A stretch of DNA of 11,838 nt, from positions 1 to 11,838 of the IMG/VR virus record IMGVR_UViG_3300000059_000035. One strand, written 5' to 3'. Of this stretch, positions 1 through 11,838 are shown one piece after another. The notes under the pieces were generated by a model, which worked only from the letters and a program-made list of their open reading frames with translations, was not told where the DNA came from and did not search any database. Positions within the stretch are counted from its first letter, which is position 1. Every line of letters starts with the position of its first letter. The translations under genes and the position numbers were made by a program. This DNA comes from a virus. Its lineage: Duplodnaviria; Heunggongvirae; Uroviricota; Caudoviricetes.

Positions 1-1
1 C

Positions 2-3000
2 CTGAAAGTCGTCGATGGCATTCTGGTATCTCCGGACGATTACGAAGGTAAGGACGGGGTATTTACCGGCTATCAGCTACGAACCGTAAACGGCAAAAAC
101 GGGAATGAGTTCAAGAAGGCCAACAATAAAGACGGCTTCCTGAACCAGTTAGAAAACTACCTGAACGGTGTTAAACCGCGTGGGCAGAACGCTAACGAGT
201 ACCTGGATAAAATTGCTCAACTGGAAGTTAGTTTTAACGACTGGTTACGCACCCACCCGCAGGCGGATCAGATAGCCCGCGAGTATAACGACGCATTCAA
301 TGGCTTCATTCCGTTCACGCACTCTAACGCACCGCTTGGCCTGGAAGGGATTAGTGGAAAGCGCATTCCTCTGACTTATCAGAATGAAGAAGTTCGGCGC
401 TTGTCAGAAGATGGGCGCGGCATCATGGGATTTGGTACCGGGCTGGGTAAAACCACGACCGCGCTTGCGCTTGAGGCGTATAACTTCGAAACAGGTCGCA
501 CTAAACGCACGTGTATTGTTGTTCCGAAGGCGGTTTATCAGAACTGGTATCACGAGGCACAGAGCTTCTACAGTGCTGATGCCTTCGCAAATATGATGTT
601 TATCGGTCTGGATGAAGTTCGTGATGAAGACGGCAATATTCTGACCGCGCCGGTGCTTGATGAAAATGGCGAACCCCGCCTCGACAGTAACGGGCAGCCT
701 CTTACCAGAAATGTTGTGAAAGAGTCCGCCAGCGCCGTTATCGTTCAGCGCATGAACATGATCCCGTCGTCAAATTGGCGAACGGTCATCATGACAAAAG
801 AACAATTCGCGTCTATCCCGCTACGAGAAAAAACCATCGAGGAGAACTCACAGCAAGCTGTCTTTAATGCTGTGGAAATGGGGCGTCTTGACCTGGCGTC
901 TGGTAAACACCGTGATGCGCAGAAGAAGAACAAGATTAAGGATCAGGCCGCGGATACCGGTACAACGAAGAAGCAGAATATCCCGTACTTTGAGGATATG
1001 AACTTCGATAGCGTGATTGCCGACGAGGGGCATAACTACCGCAACTCCTTTAATGCCGGGCGTGAAGCGGGACAACTGGCATATTTGCCTAACCCGGCAG
1101 TATCCAAGATGGCCCGCGACATGGCTGTAAAAGCTGCGTACATGATGAAACGCAACAACGGGCGTGGTGTAGTCATGCTGACGGCAACACCGCTGGTGAA
1201 CAGTCCGATTGATGCCTTCAACATGCTGTCTACTGTCATTCCGCAGGAAGAGTGGATGCGCATGGGCATCATTACGCCTGATGATTTCGTTCGTGTGTTT
1301 GGTAAAACAGCCACAGTTCAGGTCCAGAAAATTTCCGGGGAAGTGGAAGAGAAGCAGGGGCTGGTTGGCTTCCAGAACCTTGATGGCCTGCGTGGTATTT
1401 TCCATCGCTGGACTACTCTGAAGACTGCTGCGGACGTCGGGGCGACGGTTAAAATCCCTGATATTGTCGAGAATACCTTGCAGATCCCGATGACAGGGGA
1501 GCAGGAGGCTGCTTATGAAGAGCTTCGTAAGCGTGCACAGGAGTTAAGTAGTAAAGATGCGCTGACGGTTGATGAAAACGGGCATATCACAAACGAAAAA
1601 CCGGATGATTTCATCTTCTCCATCATCCGCGACATGGATAAGGTTGCTATAGATCCGGATCTGTATGCCAGTGCGATTACATTCCAGTTCCCCGTTGAGC
1701 TTGCAGACAAGGTAAAAGCTATTGCTGATGCCCTGCCAAAAGTAGCTGGCGGTAAAGTGGCAGATGATGCAGACGAGGCCGAAGAAGACGGCGCTGGTGG
1801 GCTGGTTAGTACGCGCACCAGTAAGGTAGTGAAGACCACCTTTAGTGAACATCCGGCGCATGTTGAAATACGTGCCAGCATTGAACTGGAAGCTGAAATA
1901 CTGAAGGCCATTGCTGCCGCCGGGATTGATCTGCAGCAGGTATCACACCCCATCCCGCCGAAGTATGCCGCGCTGATCGAAAACCTTCGTGAAGGTCTGA
2001 AGAACGGTAAACAAATTGTCTTCATTGATGAAAAAGCCCAGCACCAGAAGCTGCGCCGTATTATCGCCAGTGCACTGCAAATGCCGGAGCAGGAGATAGG
2101 CATTATCAATGCGACGACCGTTAGCCAGGCTGGCGGCATCAAGCTGAAGAAGGTGAATAAGCCGACTGAACCTACTCCGAATAAAAACGGTGAATACAAA
2201 GAAGGGGCATGGGAAACCTACTACAGCAAACTTGCCCAATATGAGGATTATCTCTCAGCTAAAAATGATGCTGGCCTTGAGGGTATGGAAGGCATTGCCG
2301 CCGACTATAACGAAGGGCGCACGCGCATCATTATCTGTAACAAGAAGGCTGAAGTAGGTATTAACCTGCATATCGGGACAACCGATATCCACCACCTGAC
2401 ACTACCCTGGACACCAGCCAGTATCGACCAACGAAATGGGCGCGGTGCGCGCGTAGGTTCACCGCAAGAGAAGGTCAATGTTCACTACTATTGTGGCAAA
2501 GGCACATTCGACGACTTCCGTCTGGATACGCTGAAACGTAAGAAAGACTGGATCAAGATGGTGATGACCTCCGATATGTCAGAGATCGCCAATGGTGATG
2601 CGGATGATGCTGATGAACGCGCCATTATGCTGGCGGCAAACCCGGAAGAACGCCGCGCAATCATGGCTCGCCAGGCGCAAGAGCGTGAAGAACGTCTGAA
2701 ACTGAAAGCACAGCGCGAGGCCAACAATGCTCTCGATATCTACCTAAAAGCGGCAAACGCCGCCGGAAAAGATATCGGCATGATGGAGACAGAACTGAAA
2801 AGCGCGATGGAGCAGATAGAGTATTACCAGCGCAATCTTGACGACCTGATAAAAGCGGGCACGAACAGGAATGGGCAAAAATACGCGCTTGAGCAGTTGA
2901 GTAGCTACAGAAAACGTGCGCGGGTGCTGCGGTTTGCGATCACCAGGGCAAAAGACGCGGATACCATAATGAAACGCTCTCGTGGTGATGTGGAGCGCGC

Positions 3001-4735
3001 TATTAAGTCTGGTGTGCTGGATATCAGTATCGATGTTATTCAGAACCCACAGGAATATATGCGCACTGACAAGAATATCCTGTTGCATAAAGGTAGTTAT
3101 TACCGTGCAGTCATTGATGATCGCGAAACAACAGCGATTGTCCGGGTGGAAAAAATTGACGGTGAAAAAGCACAGTACATCTGCCGTATCGCCTGGCTGG
3201 ATAGAGCAAGTCGTTACGCTCGATCACCGGGGTCAATCGTTACATTGCCGTTTGACTCTGTGATTGAAGCGGTAACTTTTGAAGAGGGGGTAGCTGAATC
3301 GCGCGCAACGGCTGCGCGTGGTGTTCAGTGCCACCAGCTATCAACAATACTTACTCGCGATCAGTTCTATGATGCTATTCGCAATGGGGTAATGAATGTT
3401 ATTGCTGGTAAACCTGGTAATGCATGGGGCGGTGGGTCAGCTATTAAATACTGGGCATATCGCACAGATGATGGTCAGATCGCGCTGTCATCGGCCTATG
3501 ATGGCGTGATAGGCCAAAAAATCGGGCGAGCATCGGATATAGCACCTGAACGATGGATATATCCAGATGGCAACGATGAGGCGCTGAAGCGTGAAGTGGC
3601 AAAAATACAAGCCAGTGATAACCCGCTGAATATCGTGGACGGAGAGGGATTCCTCCAGGCATTGTATGGGTATGATTACATCCAGGGAATGCAGGCATGG
3701 GGCGCACAGGCAACGATGGATGATGTTGCCAAGGAGTTCGAAAACTGGATGGCTGGGCGTGGTCTGTCAGGTCGTTCGCTTAATAAAGTCACTTCTGAAG
3801 ATATTCTTAGCCTGTTCCGCAAACCGTCCGGAGAAGGTCTGGAATCATTCTGGAGGACCGTGCTGGCATACCGTTTATTCCAGGGCAGGATGAAAGCCTT
3901 TAGCAATATCGATGATATTGAACGGATGTTTAATCAGGTCAAGATAGCGAAAATTAAGACGAAGATCGAAAAAACACGTTCTGCGCTGGTGGCCTGGCGC
4001 GATGCATTGTTTGAGCAATATAAATCACTCAGTGATGCAGATGGATGGGCGGCACTGGAACAGTTGGCGAATAATGGGGTAGATGGAGCGAAACTCGCCA
4101 TTGTCCAGGCTGATAACCCCCTGGAATCACCGGCAGCACAGTGGATTAAGGTGGGGGCTGTCATCAATGCATTTGATGAAAAACACATTAGTAAGGACGA
4201 TTTTGCTGATGCTGTTTCTGTTAATCGCCTGGTAGAAATGGCTACCCGCCGCGCCCGTGAGTTGAAAGACGGTGACTATGTGAATGAGTTGCCGGATGCG
4301 CTCAAATCAGCAACGTGGCAAGACTATGTATCGCTGAAAAACGGCGGGGCCACCGAATCAGAGATCGCGGAAAGGCTTGAACAGGCTGAAAGCAAAAGAG
4401 AAGAGCAGGCGGCAGTGGCAGAAGCCAGAGCTGATGAAGCGGCGAATGATGACTATATCATTGTGGTTAATGATAAGCCGATTCGCGCTAAGGCGCGTGT
4501 TCGCGGGCGCTGGTGGAGCGTCAGCGAGGACGTTGGCGCGGTTTATCTCATTGCCGACCAACCAGGTTCCTCGACAATACGGAACGCCAAAGACGCGATT
4601 AAGAAGATTGGCGGGCGTTTCTGGAATTTTGAAGTGAATCCGGTCGCGGATGTGGACTTTGACCGTCCGGCGTGGATGGTATCTACGCGTTACTCGGTAG
4701 ATGAACTGCGTAAAATAATCGCCGATGCGGCTTAA
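2..4735 (+). CDS. Giant multidomain protein, 5'-truncated by the window edge (1578 codons visible); SF2 DEGH-box helicase core followed by a ~750-aa C-terminal region of unknown function
   Basis: Frame 2 is open from position 2 through the TTG at 401 where the ORF track begins (I walked every codon; no stop), ending at TAA 4733-4735. Walker A GFGTGLGKTT at 428-460, DEGH box at 1022-1033, LTATP (motif III-like) at 1178-1192, motif VI QRNGRGARVG at 2429-2458. Acidic tract DDADEAEEDG and a charged coiled-coil-like segment (ERRAIMARQAQEREERLKLK). No convincing start or RBS in-window, so the N-terminus lies upstream. Confidence 0.85.
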   Translation: MKVVDGILVSPDDYEGKDGVFTGYQLRTVNGKNGNEFKKANNKDGFLNQLENYLNGVKPRGQNANEYLDKIAQLEVSFNDWLRTHPQADQIAREYNDAFNGFIPFTHSNAPLGLEGISGKRIPLTYQNEEVRRLSEDGRGIMGFGTGLGKTTTALALEAYNFETGRTKRTCIVVPKAVYQNWYHEAQSFYSADAFANMMFIGLDEVRDEDGNILTAPVLDENGEPRLDSNGQPLTRNVVKESASAVIVQRMNMIPSSNWRTVIMTKEQFASIPLREKTIEENSQQAVFNAVEMGRLDLASGKHRDAQKKNKIKDQAADTGTTKKQNIPYFEDMNFDSVIADEGHNYRNSFNAGREAGQLAYLPNPAVSKMARDMAVKAAYMMKRNNGRGVVMLTATPLVNSPIDAFNMLSTVIPQEEWMRMGIITPDDFVRVFGKTATVQVQKISGEVEEKQGLVGFQNLDGLRGIFHRWTTLKTAADVGATVKIPDIVENTLQIPMTGEQEAAYEELRKRAQELSSKDALTVDENGHITNEKPDDFIFSIIRDMDKVAIDPDLYASAITFQFPVELADKVKAIADALPKVAGGKVADDADEAEEDGAGGLVSTRTSKVVKTTFSEHPAHVEIRASIELEAEILKAIAAAGIDLQQVSHPIPPKYAALIENLREGLKNGKQIVFIDEKAQHQKLRRIIASALQMPEQEIGIINATTVSQAGGIKLKKVNKPTEPTPNKNGEYKEGAWETYYSKLAQYEDYLSAKNDAGLEGMEGIAADYNEGRTRIIICNKKAEVGINLHIGTTDIHHLTLPWTPASIDQRNGRGARVGSPQEKVNVHYYCGKGTFDDFRLDTLKRKKDWIKMVMTSDMSEIANGDADDADERAIMLAANPEERRAIMARQAQEREERLKLKAQREANNALDIYLKAANAAGKDIGMMETELKSAMEQIEYYQRNLDDLIKAGTNRNGQKYALEQLSSYRKRARVLRFAITRAKDADTIMKRSRGDVERAIKSGVLDISIDVIQNPQEYMRTDKNILLHKGSYYRAVIDDRETTAIVRVEKIDGEKAQYICRIAWLDRASRYARSPGSIVTLPFDSVIEAVTFEEGVAESRATAARGVQCHQLSTILTRDQFYDAIRNGVMNVIAGKPGNAWGGGSAIKYWAYRTDDGQIALSSAYDGVIGQKIGRASDIAPERWIYPDGNDEALKREVAKIQASDNPLNIVDGEGFLQALYGYDYIQGMQAWGAQATMDDVAKEFENWMAGRGLSGRSLNKVTSEDILSLFRKPSGEGLESFWRTVLAYRLFQGRMKAFSNIDDIERMFNQVKIAKIKTKIEKTRSALVAWRDALFEQYKSLSDADGWAALEQLANNGVDGAKLAIVQADNPLESPAAQWIKVGAVINAFDEKHISKDDFADAVSVNRLVEMATRRARELKDGDYVNELPDALKSATWQDYVSLKNGGATESEIAERLEQAESKREEQAAVAEARADEAANDDYIIVVNDKPIRAKARVRGRWWSVSEDVGAVYLIADQPGSSTIRNAKDAIKKIGGRFWNFEVNPVADVDFDRPAWMVSTRYSVDELRKIIADAA

Positions 4736-4746
4736 CAGATAAGGAG

Positions 4747-4764
4747 CGGCCCCAGCCGGGGCCG
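4747..4764 (+). other. GC-rich hairpin (7-bp stem CGGCCCC/GGGGCCG, 4-nt loop) between an AAGGAG Shine-Dalgarno (4741-4746) and the ATG at 4772
   Basis: Perfect inverted repeat read directly; no U-tract follows, so it is not a canonical intrinsic terminator. Confidence 0.6.
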
Positions 4765-4771
4765 GATTTGA

Positions 4772-5206
4772 ATGACGACATTAATTGACACTGTAAAACC
4801 GACGGAATCCTACCTTGAGGATATTTTGCCGCAGGCGCTCAATGGCAGGAGTGAAGAGGCGTTTCTGGATGCATATCTGGATGGTATGGTGGAAAGGCTG
4901 AAACGAGATCCACAGCTTTATCACCTTTATGGCCCGTGGTGGCCTGCGCTTAAAACGTTATTGCTGGAGCGCGGCGACATATCATTTGGACAAGTTGTAG
5001 ATAGTGATGTGGCAGAGATCTACAAAATGAGTCGCCCGGCGCTTACGGTTTTAGCCGGGCATCTGTATTCAAGCGATCGCCTGGAAAATGACGCGGTATA
5101 CAATCCCGTTCATGCTCTGGAAGTCGCGCCTTATGCTGATGATACAGAGCCATATGTGTACACAAGTTACGACGAGTCGATAGAGAAATATCGAATCATG
5201 GGGTAG
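4772..5206 (+). CDS. Hypothetical acidic protein, 144 aa
   Basis: ATG ORF 36 nt downstream of the giant gene stop; about 25 D/E versus 12 K/R by my count; stop TAG 5204-5206 lies 2 nt before the next ATG. Confidence 0.6.
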   Translation: MTTLIDTVKPTESYLEDILPQALNGRSEEAFLDAYLDGMVERLKRDPQLYHLYGPWWPALKTLLLERGDISFGQVVDSDVAEIYKMSRPALTVLAGHLYSSDRLENDAVYNPVHALEVAPYADDTEPYVYTSYDESIEKYRIMG

Positions 5207-5208
5207 CT

Positions 5209-5469
5209 ATGCGAAAGAATCGTAGGTTTACGATCGACGACTTAAAAGCGTACTCACAAGGGAAGGGATACGCCCTTGAATACCACCGTTATAAGCGGGT
5301 ATTTACCCTGCGGCATATAGAAAACCCTTCGAAATGGGGATGGATTTATTTTCCGCACACTGACGATAAGCTGGTGGGCCTTGTTGATGATTTATCCTAT
5401 GAAGGATGGATGATCGCTATCGACAAGGCGGTTACAGAAATTAACGAACCGGATAAAATAAACCATTAA
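5209..5469 (+). CDS. Hypothetical protein, 86 aa
   Basis: ATG at 5209 is 2 nt after the upstream stop (TAGCTATG), suggesting translational coupling; same strand and context. No recognisable motif. Confidence 0.5.
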   Translation: MRKNRRFTIDDLKAYSQGKGYALEYHRYKRVFTLRHIENPSKWGWIYFPHTDDKLVGLVDDLSYEGWMIAIDKAVTEINEPDKINH

Positions 5470-5473
5470 AAAT

Positions 5474-5513
5474 AACAAGTTGGGTAAATGACATACAATT
5501 TACCCGGCTTGTT
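5474..5513 (+). other. Long hairpin just after the 86-aa gene (16-bp stem with two G-U pairs, 8-nt loop); possible terminator or RNA stabiliser lacking a U-tract
   Basis: AACAAGTTGGGTAAAT (5474-5489) pairs with ATTTACCCGGCTTGTT (5498-5513); core GGGTAAAT/ATTTACCC is a perfect 8-bp inverted repeat. Confidence 0.5.
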
Positions 5514-5592
5514 GACCCGCATCACCATTTACTCTAAAAACAAGTCCGACCTGTTGCATCCGCCTATCTCTTTAGTAGTATTTCCCCCGGTT

Positions 5593-5620
5593 TTGATAAA
5601 ACTAACGCTCTTGTTATTAT
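5593..5620 (+). promoter_or_regulatory. Candidate sigma70-type promoter (-35 TTGATA, 16-bp spacer, -10 TATTAT)
   Basis: TTGATA at 5593-5598 and TATTAT at 5615-5620, about 35 nt upstream of the VRR-NUC ORF start. Confidence 0.4.
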
Positions 5621-5644
5621 CGTGATCATGATTTCAGGAAGTTT

Positions 5645-5654
5645 GTGTTAGAAA
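5645..5654 (+). promoter_or_regulatory. Copy of the recurring GTGTTAGAAA motif, ending 1 nt before the TTG start at 5656
   Basis: Exact 10-mer shared with 7945-7954 and 8095-8104. Confidence 0.4.
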
Positions 5655-5655
5655 T

Positions 5656-6102
5656 TTGATTCGAAGACGCAGGCATCATAGTGCGTATTCTGAAATATCC
5701 CCGCACGCTGCTGCACTAAGAGAGTTAGAAAGAAATCCTGACTTACTAAAAAGGAATTACGAACATTACGAACAGGTTCGCGTTCTGGATTGGCTGTATC
5801 GCAACATGCGATACGTGTATGAGCACACACACTCAACACCGAACGGCGGCCTGAGAGGCAAAAGGACAGCCATTAAGATGGTGGCAGAAGGTCAGAAGAA
5901 GGGCTATCCGGACCTTTCTATTGACCTTGCTCGTGGTGGGTATCACGGAATGCGCATTGAGATGAAGCACGGGAGAAACCGTCTGACTCCCGAACAGCTC
6001 GTCTGGATGACCCGCCTCACGGAAGCAGGCTATTACTGCTTTGAGGCGCGCAGTGCCGATGAAGCCATAAAAGCTATCACGGAATATGTAAATCTTGATT
6101 AA
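5656..6102 (+). CDS. VRR-NUC domain nuclease (PD-(D/E)xK superfamily), 148 aa if the TTG start is used
   Basis: Conserved VRR-NUC-like segments read in the translation: HSTPNGG, GYPDLSI, RIEMKHG (E-x-K), TPEQLVWMTRLTEAGYYCF. Stop TAA 6100-6102. Start is uncertain: the only in-frame start codon before the conserved N-terminal region is TTG at 5656, with weak SD. Confidence 0.7.
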   Translation: MIRRRRHHSAYSEISPHAAALRELERNPDLLKRNYEHYEQVRVLDWLYRNMRYVYEHTHSTPNGGLRGKRTAIKMVAEGQKKGYPDLSIDLARGGYHGMRIEMKHGRNRLTPEQLVWMTRLTEAGYYCFEARSADEAIKAITEYVNLD

Positions 6103-6116
6103 ACGGAGAAATCGTT

Positions 6117-6317
6117 TTGCGTTTACTTAACGTGGCTGAACTTATCCCTGCCGGTGCTAACGTTGTTGCTCGTCGCTGCTCATGGCCTCATTCTTTCTGT
6201 ATAGAGCTTAAAAAGATGGATGATGGGGCATTAGAAGCCCGAAACATAGTTACCGGCGACAAGGTATGCATTACCCCGGAAAGCGCGAAAGCCAATGATT
6301 GGGAGTTTGTTCATTGA
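6117..6317 (+). CDS. Hypothetical small protein, 66 aa (TTG start)
   Basis: GGAG at 6104-6107 lies 9 nt upstream of TTG 6117; stop TGA 6315-6317. No motif recognised; short, so uncertain. Confidence 0.35.
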   Translation: MRLLNVAELIPAGANVVARRCSWPHSFCIELKKMDDGALEARNIVTGDKVCITPESAKANDWEFVH

Positions 6318-6625
6318 GCAGAAAACACCACGTAAATCTGACGTTTGCTGATGACGCCGGAAGAACCAGAAGCATAACCATGAAAGTTGCTTCCAGGAAA
6401 GTAACCGCTCCACTTATACGAGAGGCCGTAAGTGAACTTGAGATGAGTGAGAATGCAGCTCTGTTATCGGTAAGCTGGCTGGGGAAAATGACGGATCAGG
6501 AATACTCGGATGGTATACCCCACGGTGAGCGGCAGATAGTAAAGCGCGCGCTTAGAATTTCAGAGGTAGTTGTCGTACTGATAGCTTTGATTTATATGGC
6601 ATACATGCTACTTCAACACGTCTAA
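6314..6625 (+). CDS. Hypothetical small protein with a C-terminal hydrophobic (probable transmembrane) segment; start uncertain (TTG 6314 or ATG 6380)
   Basis: TTG 6314-6316 overlaps the upstream TGA (TTGA) with GGGAG at 6301-6305; alternative ATG at 6380. C-terminus ISEVVVVLIALIYMAYMLLQHV is strongly hydrophobic. Stop TAA 6623-6625. Confidence 0.4.
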   Translation: MSRKHHVNLTFADDAGRTRSITMKVASRKVTAPLIREAVSELEMSENAALLSVSWLGKMTDQEYSDGIPHGERQIVKRALRISEVVVVLIALIYMAYMLLQHV

Positions 6626-6633
6626 ACGGTCAT

Positions 6634-6660
6634 AAACCCGCCAGTTGGCGGGTTTTTTGT
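6634..6660 (+). terminator. Rho-independent terminator
   Basis: Stem CCCGCC (6637-6642) / GGCGGG (6647-6652), loop AGTT, followed by TTTTTT (6653-6658). Confidence 0.8.
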
Positions 6661-6676
6661 TGCCTGAGTCTTTTTA

Positions 6677-6713
6677 TTGAAATTGCATACTAATAAAATA
6701 TGTTAGAAAACTA
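6677..6713 (+). promoter_or_regulatory. Candidate promoter for the 402-aa gene (-35 TTGAAA, 16-bp spacer, -10 TATGTT) overlapping a TGTTAGAAAACTA motif copy
   Basis: TTGAAA 6677-6682, TATGTT 6699-6704; motif GTTAGAAAACTA at 6702-6713; the ATG at 6735 has an AGGGAA-type SD. Confidence 0.5.
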
Positions 6714-6734
6714 ATTTCAAGAAAGGGAACAAAC

Positions 6735-7943
6735 ATGAGTCAGCAAGTAGAATCATCAAGCCTGGAGATCATCTCAACCGCAATTGAAACGCTGCGGACA
6801 CAAATCGCGCTTATACAGAAACGAAATCCGGGCGATGACCTGTCAAAGCGACTGCATGAGAGCGTCATTGCCACTACAGATAACCTGGTGGCGGAAATCA
6901 ACCAGCTCCTTGATGATGGGGCAGTTGATTACAATAAGCTGGTGGATCAGTTTGAGGAATATCAGCAAGCCGTTAATGATGGCTTGATCCGTTTTTCTCA
7001 AGTCACTGGTGTATCAGCGACAGTTGAAAGCCTGGGGGATGCTGTTAATCAATTTGCCGCGAATATGCGTAATGAGATCGGCAATCTGGAGGCGCGTCTT
7101 GAGCAGGCAAATACACTGCGCAAATCTGCTGAAGTCGATTTGAGTCGTTACAAAAAAGACTATCCGCCAAGCCTGACAAAACGACTGGATGTTGCGGAGA
7201 AAGATAACCGCACGCTGAAAAGAGAGCGTCGGGAACTAAAAGAGCGTTTAACCAAGCTAAATCAGCAATGCGTTGAGTATCAAGGCGAACTCGTCACGCT
7301 GCGTAAAAAGTTAGCAGCGGCGCAGAGCATTATTGAAACATTGAAACGAGAGTGCTCAGAGCTTGGTCATGATCTGAATCGCGCCTGTGGCATGGGGCAA
7401 AGGCCAGAGACATTCCCGCTAATGTATGACGGAAGAGAAGCTATTGCCTATATCCATGAGTTTCCGCATGGTCTGGTCGCGGAGACTGGGCAACGTGGCG
7501 AAGCGTTGCTGACGGCAAATTACCATCAGCAAATCAGAACCAGCCGCCTGCTGACGATGGATGTGATCCCGTCAGTATGGGGAACGCCGCTTTACTACCG
7601 AATTCCTGGCTTCGAAACTGACTGGAATACCGACATAGACGAATGTCTGGCAGATAAAATTATGGCGTACCTTGAAACGGATTTTCCACGCTTGCATCGC
7701 CGGATTATGGACTCTAAGGATGCACCGATCGACGAATTGAAAATGCGTCCAGAGACGTTGGAGGCAATCAAGCAGACTGAGTTTGATACAGTGTTCAGTG
7801 TGGCCTGCATTCCAAGCAGCTTTCATGAAAGCATTCCGTTCATGCAGGGCGATCGACGTCAGGAAATAATTGATGCTTGCCGGGTATGGGCGAACGAGTG
7901 GGATAAGAAGAACGGTGGAGTTGAAAATCTTTACGGGAAATAA
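6735..7943 (+). CDS. Hypothetical protein, 402 aa: N-terminal ~220 aa predicted coiled coil, C-terminal ~180 aa globular domain of unknown function
   Basis: ATG with SD; long ORF; heptad-like charged segments (for example RLDVAEKDNRTLKRERRELKERLTKLNQQCVEYQGELVTLRKKLAAAQ); flanked by a terminator upstream and a palindrome downstream. No catalytic motif recognised. Confidence 0.75.
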   Translation: MSQQVESSSLEIISTAIETLRTQIALIQKRNPGDDLSKRLHESVIATTDNLVAEINQLLDDGAVDYNKLVDQFEEYQQAVNDGLIRFSQVTGVSATVESLGDAVNQFAANMRNEIGNLEARLEQANTLRKSAEVDLSRYKKDYPPSLTKRLDVAEKDNRTLKRERRELKERLTKLNQQCVEYQGELVTLRKKLAAAQSIIETLKRECSELGHDLNRACGMGQRPETFPLMYDGREAIAYIHEFPHGLVAETGQRGEALLTANYHQQIRTSRLLTMDVIPSVWGTPLYYRIPGFETDWNTDIDECLADKIMAYLETDFPRLHRRIMDSKDAPIDELKMRPETLEAIKQTEFDTVFSVACIPSSFHESIPFMQGDRRQEIIDACRVWANEWDKKNGGVENLYGK

Positions 7944-7944
7944 T

Positions 7945-7976
7945 GTGTTAGAAAACTAAAATTATCTTTCTAACAT
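7945..7976 (+). promoter_or_regulatory. Palindromic operator-like site: GTGTTAGAAA - 12 bp - TTTCTAACAT
   Basis: Arms 7945-7954 and 7967-7976 are reverse complements at 9 of 10 positions; it sits 2 nt after the stop codon of the 402-aa gene. Confidence 0.5.
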
Positions 7977-8011
7977 GTTGATTATGGGATTAACTTAACA
8001 TAGAATTTTTC

Positions 8012-8081
8012 GTGCTGGTGGGGAGCTTCCCATGTCGCTTGCGGGTTTGATAGTCACTTCATTGTCTTCCCCCACCAGCAC
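8012..8081. repeat. Long-stem inverted repeat (about 13-bp stem with one bulge, 43-nt interior), tRNA-sized (70 nt)
   Basis: GTGCTGGTGGGGA (8012-8024) pairs with TCCCCCACCAGCAC (8068-8081). Confidence 0.45.
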
Positions 8082-8094
8082 CAAACAAACTTAA

Positions 8095-8104
8095 GTGTTA
8101 GAAA
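8095..8104 (+). promoter_or_regulatory. Copy of the GTGTTAGAAA motif
   Basis: Exact 10-mer; AT-rich flanks. Confidence 0.4.
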
Positions 8105-8246
8105 GTAAATTTTAAGGTAAGGGAAAGCTCCGGCACCGTGCAAATACATGCCCGGCAGGTTTAGTGCGTAAAGTGGTTTCAGCGAGAGCATTTTACGGAG
8201 TAAACGACAGTGACTTGAGCCACGGAAGGTCTTTTTAAGGTGTTCA

Positions 8247-8274
8247 TTGATGATGATCTGGCAGTGAGTATGTT
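8247..8274 (+). promoter_or_regulatory. Candidate promoter (-35 TTGATG, 16-bp spacer, -10 TATGTT) upstream of the small ORF at 8338
   Basis: Same -10 hexamer (TATGTT) and spacer length as the 6677-6704 candidate. Confidence 0.35.
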
Positions 8275-8337
8275 AAGTGGGCCAGGCTGCATCGGGTCAT
8301 CATCAGTGCACATCCTCAACGTTAAGGAGGCGCAGAG

Positions 8338-8529
8338 TTGGGTTTTCCTCTTATTTTGCTGACTCTGAGTCTCCTTAACGTTGCGGTAATGCACCTATGC
8401 GGATGTGGCCTTGCATTGTGTTTTGAAAGAATGGGGGTAAGGCCGGGGATATCCCCAGGGGGAGGCACCCCCGCTGCAACGAACAGCCATAGACGGCAGT
8501 CGAGTGATGAAAACGTGAAAAGACTTTAA
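8338..8529 (+). CDS. Small protein (63 aa) with a hydrophobic N-terminal half; candidate membrane peptide
   Basis: Strong SD AAGGAGG at 8324-8330, 7 nt before TTG 8338; N-terminus GFPLILLTLSLLNVAVMHLCGCGLALCF is hydrophobic, C-terminus polar. Non-ATG start and short length keep confidence low. Confidence 0.35.
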   Translation: MGFPLILLTLSLLNVAVMHLCGCGLALCFERMGVRPGISPGGGTPAATNSHRRQSSDENVKRL

Positions 8530-8606
8530 ACCTCGTTACGGCTGGCGTGGCAAACGCGACAACCGGGATAGGACGGTGACGGGCGGAGAGAGAGCCGCTT
8601 CAAGAT

Positions 8607-8673
8607 AAAAGCCGACTATGGATTCCTTTCTGCGGGCCTTTGAAAGTGAATCTTGCTCAGGCAGTCGGCTTTT
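8607..8673. repeat. Long-stem inverted repeat (perfect 11-bp stem, 45-nt interior), tRNA-sized (67 nt)
   Basis: AAAAGCCGACT (8607-8617) pairs with AGTCGGCTTTT (8663-8673). Confidence 0.45.
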
Positions 8674-8803
8674 ATGTTGATACGTAGCGATAACCGCGAC
8701 AGGCGCGGCGGTAAGTATGGCGGGGTTATTCCTTCCCCGTTGAGGACACCGAGTTGCCAGGTTGACCATACGCCTAAGTGGCAATACCGCGAGTGGGATA
8801 TTT

Positions 8804-8828
8804 GCCCACCTTCGGGTGGGTGTTTTTT
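8804..8828 (+). terminator. Rho-independent terminator
   Basis: Stem CCCACC (8805-8810) / GGTGGG (8815-8820), loop TTCG, followed by TGTTTTTT. Confidence 0.8.
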
Positions 8829-9012
8829 CAGTGTTTTCGTCATGGTTAGCGACTTTGCGGCGGTTTAGAACCCGACCATTAAAGTAAATGCAAACGATGA
8901 TCTGATGATGGTAGCGGCCTAAGAAGCCTGACGCCACGGGGTATGAGTCGTCCCCCGTCAAAAAATCGACCGCAGAGTGTCCCCGTCTGTGTATTAGGGA
9001 ACGGGGAGGCAT

Positions 9013-9089
9013 AACAGGCAAGGGCGCTGGTGTGATTAACCAGATGAATGAGAAGGGGCAGGTCTTTCTGGTCAGCGCCCTTACCTGTT
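9013..9089. repeat. Long-stem inverted repeat (17-bp stem with 1 mismatch, 43-nt interior), tRNA-sized (77 nt)
   Basis: AACAGGCAAGGGCGCTG (9013-9029) pairs with CAGCGCCCTTACCTGTT (9073-9089). Confidence 0.45.
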
Positions 9090-9288
9090 GCGTCCTTCCC
9101 GCGTAACAGCCATTGGTTAATGGCTTTCTGGATAATGTCTTGTAACGGGTATATCCCGTCATGCTGAAGGCGCTAATCACGCTGGAAGCCAGGGTTATGC
9201 ATCCCCTGTTACCGAATTGCAGCCAGGGCGCGGTGCGCCGAAAAGCATACGGAGGTGGAAGCCCTCGCCGGAGACGTACCCGGCAAGT

Positions 9289-9365
9289 GATGGTGTAGCT
9301 CAGTAGGATAGAGCAGCAGCCTTCTAAGCTGTCGGTCGGTGGTTCGAATCCACCCACCATCGCCA
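9289..9365 (+). tRNA. tRNA-Arg (anticodon TCT)
   Basis: Cloverleaf read by hand: acceptor GATGGTG/CACCATC, D-arm GCTC-AGTAGGATA-GAGC, anticodon stem GCAGC/GCTGT with loop CTTCTAA, T-arm GGTGG-TTCGAAT-CCACC, discriminator G, encoded CCA. D-arm and anticodon loop resemble E. coli argU as I recall it. Confidence 0.9.
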
Positions 9366-9370
9366 ATTTA

Positions 9371-9457
9371 GGGGAGTTAGTCCGTAGGGGTAGCGGGGTA
9401 GACTGTAAATCTACTGTCATTGCGACTCGGATGGTTCGACTCCATCACTCCCCACCA
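9371..9457 (+). tRNA. tRNA-Tyr (anticodon GTA), type II with long variable arm
   Basis: Acceptor GGGGAGT/ACTCCCC, anticodon stem GTAGA/TCTAC with loop CTGTAAA, long variable arm TGTCATTGCGACTCG (similar to E. coli tyrT as I recall it), T-arm GATGG-TTCGACT-CCATC, encoded CCA. D-arm pairing is imperfect as drawn by hand. Confidence 0.8.
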
Positions 9458-9461
9458 AATT

Positions 9462-9537
9462 GCCGGTTTAGCTCAGTTGGTAGAGCAGTCGCTTTGTAAG
9501 CGAATGGCCAGCGGTTCAAGTCCGTTAACCGGCACCA
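9462..9537 (+). tRNA. tRNA-Thr (anticodon TGT)
   Basis: Acceptor GCCGGTT/AACCGGC, D-arm GCTC-AGTTGGTA-GAGC, anticodon stem GTCGC/GCGAA with loop TTTGTAA, T-arm AGCGG-TTCAAGT-CCGTT, discriminator A, encoded CCA. Confidence 0.9.
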
Positions 9538-9545
9538 ACACAACA

Positions 9546-9619
9546 GGTAAGGGTATTTTGCGACGTCGGAGATCGCCGTGCTTGGCAGAGGGTTCGAATC
9601 CCTACGAAGTACCCTTACC
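9546..9619 (+). other. tRNA-like remnant or tRNA-sized hairpin (74 nt) directly after the tRNA array; not a canonical tRNA
   Basis: Perfect 10-bp terminal stem GGTAAGGGTA (9546-9555) / TACCCTTACC (9610-9619) enclosing a T-arm-like hairpin AGGG-TTCGAAT-CCCT (9589-9603). Nine extra nt lie between the T-stem and the 3' acceptor strand, and no D-arm or anticodon arm can be drawn. Confidence 0.35.
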
Positions 9620-9767
9620 GTTGTGGTGAATGCGCAGGCTGATGCGCGAAAGACATTGCAGCTATTGCGGAAAAGAGCTGTTCGGCGGGGCAATTAAACG
9701 CCCGTGAGAGTCTGAAATAACCGCAAGCCGGAGATCAGCACCGGTCACCACAACAGCCACTGCTTTG

Positions 9768-9813
9768 GCGGTACCAGTTTGTACACTTGCTTCCGGCTGG
9801 TACCGCTCTTTTT
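9768..9813 (+). terminator. Rho-independent terminator (10-bp stem, 19-nt loop, U-tract)
   Basis: GCGGTACCAG (9768-9777) / CTGGTACCGC (9797-9806) followed by TCTTTTT (9807-9813). Confidence 0.7.
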
Positions 9814-9814
9814 A

Positions 9815-9901
9815 CAAAACAGAGAAGAGCATCACCGGACGACGGGCTCATAACCCAATCCATCCGGGCGGCNGNCACCGCAGGTGTTCTTCTCTGTTTT
9901 G
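9815..9901. repeat. Long-stem inverted repeat (16-bp stem with 1 mismatch, ~55-nt interior) in the leader upstream of the yfdP-like gene
   Basis: CAAAACAGAGAAGAGC (9815-9830) pairs with GTTCTTCTCTGTTTTG (9886-9901); interior contains two N bases (9873, 9875). Confidence 0.4.
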
Positions 9902-9950
9902 TGGAGAAACCAACCGACCTTGCAGGGTCGATATGATNAGGAGCAGCAAA

Positions 9951-10313
9951 ATGGCTAGCGAACGCAGTACTGATGTGCAGGCATTTATCGGGGAGCTGGA
10001 CGGCGGCGTATTTGAAACCAAAATCGGCGCAGTTCTCAGTGAAGTCGCTTCCGGTGTGATGAACACGAAAACCAAAGGTAAGGTCTCACTCAACCTGGAA
10101 ATCGAACCATTTGATGAGAACCGTGTGAAAATCAAACACAAACTCTCATATGTTCGCCCGACTAACCGCGGGAAAATTTCCGAAGAAGACACCACCGAAA
10201 CGCCGATGTATGTCAATCGCGGTGGTCGCCTGACTATTCTGCAGGAAGACCAGGGACAATTACTGACTCTTGCCGGTGAACCTGACGGAAAACTCCGCGC
10301 AGCAGGTCATTAA
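9951..10313 (+). CDS. yfdP: YfdP-like phage protein, 120 aa
   Basis: ATG 9951 preceded by AGGAG (9939-9943, next to an N at 9938); stop TAA 10311-10313. The 120-aa length and its position directly upstream of yfdQ/yfdR-like genes match the CPS-53 arrangement as I recall it. The longer ORF in the track (from 9765) crosses a terminator and N bases, so I reject the extension. Confidence 0.7.
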   Translation: MASERSTDVQAFIGELDGGVFETKIGAVLSEVASGVMNTKTKGKVSLNLEIEPFDENRVKIKHKLSYVRPTNRGKISEEDTTETPMYVNRGGRLTILQEDQGQLLTLAGEPDGKLRAAGH

Positions 10314-10378
10314 TATCGTTCTTAATTAACTGATTATTTATCTCATCACTGAATATCTTTATATAGTGAGGACTTATT

Positions 10379-11203
10379 ATGTCTCAGAACTTAGACGCAA
10401 CCGCAATTAATCAAATCCATGCCCTTATTTCTGCTCAGGGTGTTAATGAAATTATCAGTAAGATTGGTGCCGATGCTGTGGCATTGCCTGAGAATTTCCG
10501 CATTCATGATCTGGAAAAATTTAATTTAAATCGCTTCCGTTTCCGTGGTGCGCTTTCCACTGCCAGCATCGATGACTTTACCCGTTATTCTAAAGATCTT
10601 GCAGATGAAGGCACCCGCTGCTTTATCGATGCCGATAATATGCGTGCCGTCAGTGTGCTTAACCTGGGTACTATTGATGAACCAGGTCACGCAGATAACA
10701 CCGCCACTCTCAAACTGAAAAAGACAGCACCGTTCTCTGCNCTGTTGTCTGTTAANGGCGAGCGTAACTCCCAGAANTCACTGGCAGAATGGATTGAAGA
10801 CTGGGCCGACTACCTTGTGGGCTTTGATGCTAATGGTGACGCCATTCAGGCAACCAAAGCGGCGGCGGCTATCCGTAAAATCACAATTGAAGCGAACCAG
10901 ACCGCTGATTTTGAAGATAATGACTTCAGCGGCAAACGCTCCCTGATGGAGTCTGTCGAAGCGAAGACCAAAGACATTATGCCAGTGGCATTTGAATTTA
11001 AATGCATTCCGTTTGAAGGTCTGAAAGAACGTCCGTTTAAATTACGCCTCAGCATTATCACTGGCGATCGTCCGGTACTGGTTCTGCGCATTATTCAGCT
11101 GGAGGCGGTGCAGGAAGAAATGGCTAACGAATTTCGTGATCTGCTTGTTGAGAAATTCAAAGACAGCAAAGTAGAAACCTTTATTGGTACTTTCACCGCC
11201 TGA
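10379..11203 (+). CDS. yfdQ: YfdQ-like protein (DUF2303 family), 274 aa
   Basis: ATG with SD GAGGA at 10368-10372; 274 aa as in E. coli YfdQ; three codons contain N (10741, 10756, 10777). Stop TGA 11201-11203. Confidence 0.75.
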
Positions 11204-11215
11204 TTTCATTACTGC

Positions 11216-11237
11216 AAATGCCCCTGCGGGGGCATTT
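11216..11237 (+). terminator. Terminator-like hairpin (9-bp stem AAATGCCCC/GGGGCATTT, loop TGCG) with weak U-tract
   Basis: Perfect inverted repeat immediately after the yfdQ stop; followed by ATGG rather than a clean T-run, so it may be an attenuator or partial terminator. Confidence 0.5.
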
Positions 11238-11329
11238 ATGGAAACGTAATTACTCAATAATCGCCGGATGGTGAGGGCTTCCTTTTACCAGAATTCAGCG
11301 CGGTGCAGCGCATATACGTGGAGAACAAA

Positions 11330-11838
11330 ATGTCATTTATTAAAACTTTTTCCGGGAAGCATTTTTATTATGACAGGATAAATAAAGACGACATCGATAT
11401 TAACGATATCGCGGTTTCCCTTTCAAATATCTGTCGCTTTGCCGGTCATCTTTCGCACTTCTACAGCGTCGCCCAACATGCGGTTCTTTGCAGCCAGCTG
11501 GTGCCGCAGGAATTTGCTTTTGAAGCGTTAATGCATGATGCAACAGAAGCGTATTGCCAGGACATTCCCGCACCACTGAAACGCCTTCTTCCTGACTATA
11601 AACGGATGGAAGAAAAAATAGACGCCGTAATCCGTGAGAAATACGGGTTACCTCCTGTTATGAGCACGCCAGTGAAATATGCCGATCTCATCATGCTGGC
11701 AACCGAACGCCGCGATCTCGGGCTTGATGATGGCTCTTTCTGGCCTGTACTGGAAGGCATCCCGGCAACAGAGATGTTCAACGTGATTCCACTGGCACCG
11801 GGTCATGCCTACGGGATGTTTATGGAACGTTTTAACGA
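11330..11838 (+). CDS. yfdR: YfdR-like HD-domain phosphohydrolase (5'-deoxynucleotidase family), 3'-truncated by the window end
   Basis: ATG 11330 with GGAG 8 nt upstream; HD-domain signature residues visible (FAGHLSHF ... ALMHDATEAY); ORF still open at position 11838. Confidence 0.8.
   Translation, partial: MSFIKTFSGKHFYYDRINKDDIDINDIAVSLSNICRFAGHLSHFYSVAQHAVLCSQLVPQEFAFEALMHDATEAYCQDIPAPLKRLLPDYKRMEEKIDAVIREKYGLPPVMSTPVKYADLIMLATERRDLGLDDGSFWPVLEGIPATEMFNVIPLAPGHAYGMFMERFN

Follow-up and report, generated by a model that had tools for sequence, protein, structure and literature searches.

Hairpins with a shared, covarying stem in a predicted ban/tRNA-operon leader of a P1/D6-like phage-plasmid

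The tRNA gene cluster of phage T4 also encodes stable RNAs (species 1 and 2), which are small and structured, have no known function and are co-transcribed with the phage tRNA genes. Stem-loops that are processed by RNase III are known from the early region of phage T7, from the N leader and sib of phage lambda, from the stems that flank 16S and 23S ribosomal RNA, and from the dicB operon, the source of DicF. Here, we describe a family of hairpins with a common stem, referred to as X hairpins, in a DNA stretch of 11,838 nucleotides (nt) from a virus of the Caudoviricetes (IMG/VR record IMGVR_UViG_3300000059_000035, positions 1 to 11,838), which is called the window below. Like the T4 RNAs, X hairpins would be small structured RNAs beside phage tRNA genes; unlike them, the family is defined by its common stem, and it occurs in lambda, P1, T1-like, N4-like and ViI-like phages and not in the T4 cluster as far as examined. 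With the RNase III processing stems they share helices of about 20-30 bp that contain a bulge or an internal mismatch, a location between functional RNAs on one transcript, and a resemblance among the copies within one genome. They differ in that X stems enclose large conserved interiors of 13-218 nt instead of small loops, are known here from sequence, and are conserved in sequence across unrelated phage families.

A sequence-only reading of the window had listed five inverted repeats, all of which were recovered by an inverted-repeat scan, the earlier coordinates being off by a few bases. The arms are as follows:

8008-8023/8070-8085, plus strand: arms of hairpin 1, 16 nt, 94% complementary, 46 nt between them.
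8600-8617/8663-8680, plus strand: arms of hairpin 2, 18 nt, 94% complementary, 45 nt between them.
9013-9029/9073-9089, plus strand: arms of hairpin 3, 17 nt, 94% complementary, 43 nt between them.
9546-9558/9607-9619, plus strand: arms of hairpin 4, 13 nt, 92% complementary, 48 nt between them.
9814-9838/9878-9902, plus strand: arms of hairpin 5, 25 nt, 84% complementary, 39 nt between them.

The longest repeat of the region, 8301-8338/8362-8399, with 38-nt arms that are 79% complementary, was absent from that reading. When repeats were counted that have arms of 13 nt, a single mismatch at most and a distance of 35-70 nt between arms, six were found in positions 7900-10000, as compared to 0.02 ± 0.14 (largest value 1) in dinucleotide-preserving shuffles, and none in positions 1-7899 of the window. 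The z-scores for RNA folding were -2.9 for hairpin 1, -5.4 for hairpin 2, -6.1 for hairpin 3 and -4.7 for hairpin 4; the value for hairpin 5, -7.8, was computed on the mEp460 copy because the window copy contains N. Such bases are present at window positions 9873, 9875 and 9939, in or near hairpin 5, and mEp460 reads T and C at the first two (GGCTGCCACC). That the stems are chance palindromes in GC-rich DNA, which the sequence-only reading had named as a refuting outcome, is contradicted by six repeats where 0.02 are expected, by folding z-scores down to -7.8 and by conservation of the stems with compensatory changes, and we assign this explanation a negligible probability.

The hairpins are conserved, covarying RNA-type helices, and three of them form a sequence family with conserved irregularities. 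Hairpins 3, 4 and 5 follow a common design, in which an outer CACAAC is followed by a bulged A, GGTAAGAGCATTG, a variable interior, CAGTGCTCTTTCC and GTTGTG. The outer stem (CACAAC/GTTGTG; elsewhere CTATC/GATAG or GAAATC/CAGTTTT) comprises 6 bp and the inner stem (GGTAAGAGCATTG/CAGTGCTCTTTCC) 13 bp, and the whole conserved helix of about 20 bp has one bulged base on the 5' side, usually an A. The three members in the window are:

9013-9089, plus strand: hairpin 3, X-family cassette with inner stem GGCAAGGGCGCTG/CAGCGCCCTTACC (scan, folding z-score, catalogue).
9539-9625, plus strand: hairpin 4, X-family cassette with outer stem CACAAC/GTTGTG, bulged A and inner stem GGTAAGGGTATTT/AAGTACCCTTACC.
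9814-9902, plus strand: hairpin 5, X-family cassette located in the leader 5' of yfdP, ACAAAACAGAGAAGAGCATCA.../...GGTGTTCTTCTCTGTTTTGT (scan, folding z-score, catalogue).

The family of five that had been proposed is thereby reduced to these three, which share the stem, the stems of hairpins 1 and 2 being unrelated.

In total, 132 loci were gathered via a neighbouring conserved element, the tmRNA-like core described below. A consensus-guided catalogue contains 80 distinct stem variants in 121 of these 132 related phage loci; it recovers hairpins 3, 4 and 5 with 12, 13 and 12 of the 13 inner pairs, respectively, and does not recover hairpins 1 and 2. A loosened search, which also lets in some chance hairpins, counted 1-9 hairpins in each locus and 268 different interiors with lengths of 13-218 nt; the stricter catalogue holds 263 hairpins with 98 distinct interiors in 49 similarity clusters. 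With 98 distinct interiors among 263 hairpins, the family does not consist of near-identical copies, interior included, as would be expected of REP/REPIN or MITE elements. In an alignment of the trimmed stems, 90.1% of the cells were paired, as compared to 79.1% in shuffles, and 15 of the 19 pairs were changed on both sides, with 145 double-change cells as compared to 40 in the shuffles; none of 500 shuffles reached any of these values, and controls in which the arms were slid gave at most 57.5% paired cells. The double changes are more telling than the paired fraction. Where a stem departs from the consensus, 12-13 of its 13 positions match its own partner and the neighbouring arms are matched poorly, as exemplified by GATAATTGCATTG/CAGTGCAATTATC, for which local pairing amounts to 13 of 13 and cross pairing to 9.

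The irregularities of the helix are conserved as well. Of the 80 stems, 49 have a non-canonical third inner pair, counted from the base (U.U in 54 of the 86 stems of a first catalogue), and 54 have a U.G wobble as the third pair, counted from the loop. The bulged A, the U.U mismatch and the U.G wobble all persist in a variant from the Schitoviridae with six compensatory changes, AAUGAGUACAUUA/UAGUGUACUCUUU. Since G.U is frequent and A.C rare in X stems, and since the orientation of the stems relative to the tRNAs is constant, the structure belongs to the transcribed plus strand. With moderate confidence, and judging from these comparisons, we read the hairpins as modular, self-folding small-RNA cassettes in a polycistronic non-coding array, in which the stem would serve as a handle for processing or stability and, as DNA, as a recombination joint.

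Scans with Rfam models found no family for the X hairpins, and a literature search, the incomplete coverage of which makes it no proof of novelty, found no description of them. The family is widespread in phages of the E. coli type, lambda and P1 included, and apparently undescribed. A 17-mer scan of one genome per species yielded 101 matches, where about 70 are expected by chance; 42 of the matches have a partner arm. Many of them are the copy from the lambda late leader on short, low-coverage contigs in assemblies of Pseudoxanthomonas, Psychrobacter, Oceanobacillus, Enterococcus, Bradyrhizobium and others, and these copies in unrelated species are probably contamination with lambda DNA.

We compared the region to related phages and plasmids. 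Window positions 8685-9637 are about 87% identical to positions 68,729-69,600 of phage P1, which are the leader of the ban operon, and from 7900 (or 7977) on the window matches phage D6 and D6-like plasmids. A close relative, a plasmid from Escherichia marmotae (L007), is 98.4% identical over window positions 7978-9635. Judged by these matches, the inverted repeats are located on the strand of the tRNAs in a predicted untranslated leader of a repressor-controlled ban/tRNA operon of a P1/D6-like phage-plasmid. In P1, the equivalent stretch is annotated as the leader of the C1-controlled ban operon, which contains, in this order, the promoter P1ban with the operator Op72, a "dicF-like region", about 450 nt that are unannotated, trnA and trnT. 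In the window, a homologue of pmgS (6735-7943) is found upstream of the leader, which is followed by:

7946-7975, no strand: operator-like palindrome TGTTAGAAAACTAA/TTATCTTTCTAACA (inverted-repeat scan, sequence, position of P1 Oban/Op72).
7978-8006, plus strand: sigma-70-like promoter TTGATT-17-TAGAAT (9 of 12 consensus matches, sole match in 2.1 kb, consensus match only).
8694-8828, plus strand: dicF-like segment common to lambdoid phages at about 90% identity, counterpart of the "dicF-like region" annotated in P1.
9090-9288, plus strand: spacer module ending in the hairpin GCCGGAGACGTACCCGGC directly before tRNA-Arg (sequence; by-eye comparison with the STnc100 architecture).
9289-9365, plus strand: tRNA-Arg(TCT).
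9371-9457, plus strand: tRNA-Tyr(GTA).
9462-9537, plus strand: tRNA-Thr(TGT).
9951-10313, plus strand: yfdP, 120 amino acids (aa), first gene of a lambdoid-type segment.

The half-site GTGTTAGAAA of the palindrome at 7946-7975 is repeated at about 8093-8102, with copies of the motif to about 8112, and these two operator-like repeats flank the sigma-70-like promoter, with hairpin 1 likewise between them. By their sequence and by a position like that of P1 Op72, the GTGTTAGAAA repeats are probably sites for a D6-type C1 repressor at a ban-type promoter. The claim that positions 8530-9288 hold no credible open reading frame (ORF) is upheld in substance. A long frame, 8536-9420 on the minus strand (294 aa), is judged to be mechanical: it runs across two tRNA genes, it is interrupted in P1 and D6 such that no piece exceeds 100 aa, and a Pfam search of the mechanical ORFs, this frame included, gave no match. 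The annotated P1 gene plp ("putative lipoprotein", L001 3244-3621, minus strand), which shares 30 nt with the oppositely oriented trnT and spans X hairpins and modules, may be an erroneous annotation of a non-coding array.

The hairpins outside the clear family are:

8008-8085, plus strand: hairpin 1, stem of 12-16 bp, GTGCTGGTGGGG/CCCCACCAGCAC, 5' end of the leader, not X family (scan, folding z-score).
8301-8399, plus strand: sixth long hairpin, stem CAACGTTAAGGAG...CTCCTTAACGTTG (scan with 38-nt arms, compensatory change).
8600-8680, plus strand: hairpin 2, 18-bp stem AAAAGCCGACT/AGTCGGCTTTT that encloses an inner hairpin and has TTTTAT behind it, not X family (scan, folding z-score).

As compared to D6-type relatives, hairpin 1 shows one compensatory change (G-C to C-G) and hairpin 2 shows two (T-A to A-T and A-T to G-C), and the hairpin at 8301-8399 differs from D6 by a compensatory change from G-C to A-T. 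Alignment with related phages, which had been suggested as a check, has thus revealed compensatory stem changes in the X family, in hairpins 1 and 2 and in the sixth hairpin. By eye only, the stem of the latter resembles bulge-less X variants downstream of trnT in P1 and D6, and it probably belongs to the X-stem cassettes. With a predicted transcription start at about 8013, hairpin 1 would form the 5' end of the transcript. Hairpins 1 and 2 would be separate leader structures, the former a 5'-terminal stem-loop and the latter a stem with a U-run just upstream of the dicF-like segment.

The hairpins had been described as interspersed with the tRNA genes, which is true of hairpin 4, as it adjoins the tRNA cluster, but not of the others, which are located upstream or downstream in the same leader. 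The proximity and the tRNA-like size of the hairpins would agree with the suggestion that they are decayed tRNA genes, former cloverleaves with lengthened acceptor stems in which the other arms have eroded. Hairpin 4 lends this some support. Its interior contains a GCGA/TCGC hairpin and a T-arm-like element, GAGGG-TTCGAAT-CCCTA (4 of 5 pairs), which ends 2 nt before the 3' arm, and it is possibly derived from a tRNA. The T-arm-like motif is present in 10 of the 98 distinct interiors of the family, within 1-3 nt of the 3' arm in 7 of them; 88 lack it, and it was not found in hairpins 1, 2, 3 and 5. With the Rfam tRNA model (RF00005), nothing but the three true tRNAs scores, and none of the hairpins is overlapped by a match at E<=10; ARAGORN at 70% of its threshold made no call on any of the hairpins. 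The hairpin 4 class has an anticodon-like loop in which, among relatives, the U33 position is variable (CGTCGGAGA versus CGCCGGAGA). Hairpin 4 is 98.9% identical to P1, as compared to 82.9% for the neighbouring tRNA-Thr, which is the opposite of decay, and its interior recurs in other phage backgrounds. This speaks for a functional interior, recent exchange being the alternative. Decay from tRNA genes is already refuted as a general explanation, and we regard it as very unlikely overall.

We also compared the modules between the cassettes with known small RNAs. STnc100 and the related PasD are prophage-encoded, Hfq-dependent small RNAs (Zhu, Shabalina, Storz, bioRxiv 10.64898/2026.05.13.724894). 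Between the 3' arm of one X hairpin and the 5' arm of the next, a second module is often found, with the layout GTTGTGGTG-AAT-[GCGCAGGCTGATGCGC]-variable-[GCCGGAGATCAGCACCGG]-CACCACAAC. In the window, it is represented by:

9620-9754, plus strand: STnc100/PasD-like module with closing helix GTTGTGGTG/CACCACAAC, 5' hairpin GCGCAGGCTGATGCGC and 3' hairpin GCCGGAGATCAGCACCGG.

The likeness to STnc100 (RF02076) and PasD consists of the closing helix UGGUG/CACCA, a hairpin after AAU, a 3' hairpin of the CCGGNNNNNCCGG type and the same prophage and late-leader neighbourhood. The differences are that X hairpins are not part of that model and that the window module has no reportable Rfam score: it gave no match to RF02076 at E<=10 (gathering score 47 bits), whereas its relatives give 33-49 bits. 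The window module resembles STnc100 in architecture only. The marks of the module, that is, the closing helix, the 5' hairpin after AAU and the 3' hairpin GCCGGAGA...CCGG, are seen in 9620-9754 and, weakly, in 9090-9288. The latter spacer is 85% identical to P1 and may possibly be a further STnc100/PasD-like unit, for which the signal is weak. The dicF-like region, the tRNAs and the STnc100/PasD-type modules beside the X hairpins are already known elements, and the X cassettes alternate with tRNAs and with STnc100/PasD-like and tmRNA-like modules in untranslated leaders.

In phage lambda, the untranslated late leader upstream of S contains a consensus X hairpin (44,789-44,861; L238 990-1062) 8 nt after the terminator tR' and, behind this hairpin, a GTTGTGCTG...CAGCACAAC module. 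The interior of the lambda hairpin belongs to the class that is also seen in phage C1 (Deseoctovirus). In several loci of the lambdoid type, the array likewise starts right behind a strong terminator, and these leaders are therefore read by an antiterminated or derepressed polymerase. In the window, the dicF-like segment closes with an intrinsic terminator (8803-8822 plus T6). The hairpins might alternatively be signals for elongation, either for antitermination of the nut/boxA or put type or as a structure that keeps Rho off a long untranslated RNA. The location of arrays behind terminators (lambda tR', 8803-8822 here and many other loci) would agree with this, as would the need of long untranslated RNAs for protection from Rho and the presence, in the consensus 3' arm, of TGCTCTTT, the first 8 nt of the rrn boxA, followed by the GC-rich hairpin GCGCAGGCTGATGCGC. 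However, the boxA-like stretch is base-paired in the stem and is changed in the hairpins of the window (GCGCCCTTACC, GTACCCTTACC, GTGTTCTTCTC). Instead of a single-stranded boxA like GCTCTTTA together with a boxB, the three members in the window read GCGCCCTT, GTACCCTT and GTGTTCTT. The examined regions of HK022, the model for put, hold no X hairpin, and put features are missing from the HK022 annotation. Shielding from Rho would moreover leave the conserved stem sequence and the mismatch unexplained. We consider a role as elongation signal quite unlikely.

Published surveys of transfer-messenger RNA (tmRNA) require a tRNA-like 3' end, and among phages they list tmRNAs from mycobacteriophages and Bacillus phage G only, plus a form in phage DS6A that consists of the tRNA-like domain (TLD) alone (PMC4131195, PMC11915505). 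The element through which the loci were gathered is the mirror image of the TLD-only gene of mycobacteriophage DS6A (PMC4131195, PMC11915505), as it has the mRNA-like part only:

8833-9010, plus strand: tmRNA-like core, 178 nt, unannotated, with tag frame, stop-codon hairpin and two pseudoknots.

The tag frame (8890-8922, GCA...TAA) encodes ANDDLMMVAA and lacks a start codon, and its stop codon is located in the loop of a hairpin with the stem 8916-8918/8926-8928. Two pseudoknots follow, the first formed by 8937-8941/8953-8957 and 8947-8950/8967-8970 and the second by 8971-8976/8986-8991 and 8980-8985/9002-9007. Hairpin 3 starts three bases past the end of the core, and its helix can be extended to 9002-9101, in competition with the second pseudoknot. 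The core is 97.8% identical to P1 and is found, also unannotated, in the Ackermannviridae, Schitoviridae, Drexlerviridae, Deseoctovirus and other phages, with at least 86 distinct versions in IMG/VR from very different enterobacterial phages. From 49 distinct nucleotide versions, 17 distinct tag peptides were obtained, all of 10 aa and of the form AN[DE][DEN]....[AV]A (one ends in AP). Examples are ANDDLMMVAA of the window, ANDDVVLMAA, ANDEQFLAVA and ANEEMYLAVA, which resemble ANDENYALAA of E. coli SsrA.

The stop-codon hairpin and the two H-type pseudoknots were paired in 87.9% of the cells, as compared to 76.8% in shuffles, with 128 versus 40 double-change cells, and the first stem of the structure was paired in 98.6%. 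Explicit structures were used for this comparison, RNAalifold and a naive scan being uninformative on the mixed alignment with its pseudoknots and two sequence types. The core thus resembles tmRNA (SsrA; RF00023, RF04321) in its frame of ten codons that begins with GCA, has no start codon and reads AN(D/E)...(A/V)A, in the stop codon within a hairpin loop and in the H-type pseudoknots that follow. It differs in the lack of an acceptor stem, T-arm, CCA and G3.U70 and in having just two pseudoknots downstream of the tag. The model RF04321 (tmRNA_permuted) scores 24.1 bits in the window and 24-33.5 bits in every copy tested among the relatives, the gathering score being 47, and nothing passes the gathering threshold for RF00023 or RF04321 in 18 loci. 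With default settings, ARAGORN finds no tRNA-like domain (acceptor stem with G3.U70, T-arm and CCA) in 25 loci. A pseudo-tRNA that bears a T-arm follows the pseudoknots in several lineages (L004 1673-1751, L098, L070, L089, L015), and in three of them ARAGORN at a threshold of 90% makes weak calls of a standard tmRNA, with C:G instead of G:U at 3:70. Beyond the tag, E. coli tmRNA and the core show no significant pairing or alignment, the values not exceeding those of shuffles. No Rfam family was found for the TLD-less core, and a literature search with incomplete coverage found no description of such a tmRNA-like element in enterobacterial phages.

Of 75 versions of the core, 58 have an X hairpin directly behind them and 25 have one in front. 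A helix in which an upstream 3' arm and a downstream 5' arm close the core, like helix P2 of tmRNA with a G3.U70-like end, was considered and rejected, since covariation in the variant stems is with the local partner and since an upstream arm is missing from many cores. The same covariation bears on the proposal that hairpin 3, hairpin 4 or both provide the absent tRNA-like part of a tmRNA that is split (two-piece or permuted) and has its coding part at 8833-9010. This proposal draws on the frequent X hairpin behind the core, on a G at position 3 of the 3' arm (seen from the loop) that is opposite a U, like the alanine identity pair G3.U70, and on the T-arm of hairpin 4, the pseudo-tRNAs after the pseudoknots in some lineages and the three weak ARAGORN calls. 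Against it, different lineages have unrelated interiors behind the core, the 5' arm is followed neither by CCA nor by a conserved discriminator, and hairpin 3 has G-C instead of G.U at the G3.U70-like position. The weak ARAGORN models have C:G at 3:70, the Rfam tmRNA models remain below threshold everywhere, and cross-pairing of the flanking arms is contradicted by the covariation. A split tmRNA is therefore given little credence, as something rather improbable. It is also doubtful that the X cassettes and the tmRNA-like core form one phage-borne system that rewires ribosome rescue. In that case, the core would be a genuine tag template without a tRNA-like domain of its own, which either assembles in trans with a cassette of the hairpin 4 class or captures host tmRNA-SmpB, and the X stem would be a shared handle used by a protein of the host or the phage to process, assemble or protect changeable payloads.

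The joints between the mosaic segments of the window coincide with hairpin arms. Identity to P1-like sequences stops at 9637 and identity to lambdoid sequences starts at 9607-9620, a joint within the 3' arm of hairpin 4 and the first part of the module behind it. From about 9607-9620 on, the window shares 98-99% identity with the yfdP region of lambdoid prophages of the SfV/e14/CPS-53 type, and 3065 of 5426 complete E. coli genomes contain this segment, which includes hairpin 5. The close twin of the window, the E. marmotae plasmid, diverges at GTGAATGCGC, and two relatives (L008 and L010) contain one extra module and hairpin between the same repeats. The suggestion that the repeats are sites of recombination or binding is thus partly supported at the level of DNA, by the mosaic joint in the 3' arm of hairpin 4 and by whole-cassette differences between relatives.

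A role in DNA only would make the repeats sites of site-specific or homologous recombination, attC-like or at boundaries, that shuffle tRNA and small-RNA cassettes. The joints on conserved arms and the different cassette content of close relatives agree with this, as do identical interiors in unrelated phages, and a fold of the top strand as single-stranded DNA stays conceivable. Like integron attC sites, X hairpins are imperfect inverted repeats, 60-140 nt long, that start and end in AAC...GTT at the base of the stem, as in the attC cores, and have an extra-helical base and a variable centre, and they bound exchangeable cassettes. They differ from them in that ACACAAC and GTTGTGG each fit the core consensus (RYYYAAC/GTTRRRY) at just 5 of 7 positions, in the RNA-type wobble pattern and in that X cassettes are non-coding and of about 100-200 nt. 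An integrase is not annotated beside the arrays in P1, D6, phiEa2809, ECBP1, CS01 and C1, in which no dedicated search for IntI was made, and none of the integron type was linked to the arrays in the annotated relatives examined. The excess of G.U over A.C and the constant orientation relative to the tRNAs point to the transcribed strand, and copies occur in strictly lytic phages. We find it unlikely that the hairpins act as DNA only.

Among the possibilities raised by the sequence-only reading, stable small RNAs from the tRNA-operon transcript are the favoured direction, on the indirect grounds of strand-specific wobbles, covariation and alternation with RNA modules. If the hairpins are small-RNA cassettes, transcription would start at the repressor-controlled promoter at about 7978-8006 and run through the tRNA genes, with stem-loops on the plus strand, and each cassette would fold alone during transcription. 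The shared helix would be a common handle by which a double-strand-specific nuclease of the RNase III type, or a common binding protein, separates neighbouring RNAs, and it may shield the enclosed interior, which would be the variable payload; in hairpin 4, the payload would be a tRNA-like fold with a T-arm. At the DNA level, the conserved arms could passively serve as joints by which cassettes and flanking genes are swapped between unrelated phages.

Several points weigh against the small-RNA cassettes. The paired fraction of 90.1% is inflated, as the catalogue was picked by similarity to the consensus and by at least 11 of 13 inner pairs, and the shuffle and slide controls correct this selection for pairing only partly. 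That RNase III cleaves the stems, or that a protein binds them, we purely infer; compatibility with an RNase III substrate extends to helix length (about 20-30 bp) and internal distortions only. The strong conservation of the inner stem is unexplained by processing alone, because RNase III needs no conserved stem sequence. Recent exchange, rather than selection, could account for the identity of hairpin 4 and the tmRNA-like core to P1, and the case for hairpins 1 and 2 draws on few relatives, with one or two compensatory changes each.

Lambda-P22 hybrids and Mu depend on host tmRNA, an old observation that is only partly explained. The tmRNA-like core poses the question of whether a template for an SsrA-like degron works without a tRNA-like domain of its own or interferes with trans-translation in the host. 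If the reading as small-RNA cassettes is true, an RNA family would be missing from Rfam despite the presence of the hairpin 5 segment in more than half of the complete E. coli genomes. Its stem would provide a structure-based way to find phage small RNAs and explain where mosaic joints are placed. The seemingly "empty" leaders, such as the lambda late leader behind tR', the ban leader of P1 and leaders of the pL type in E. coli prophages, would then be modular small-RNA arrays, the modules of which are exchanged on a common stem between unrelated phage families.

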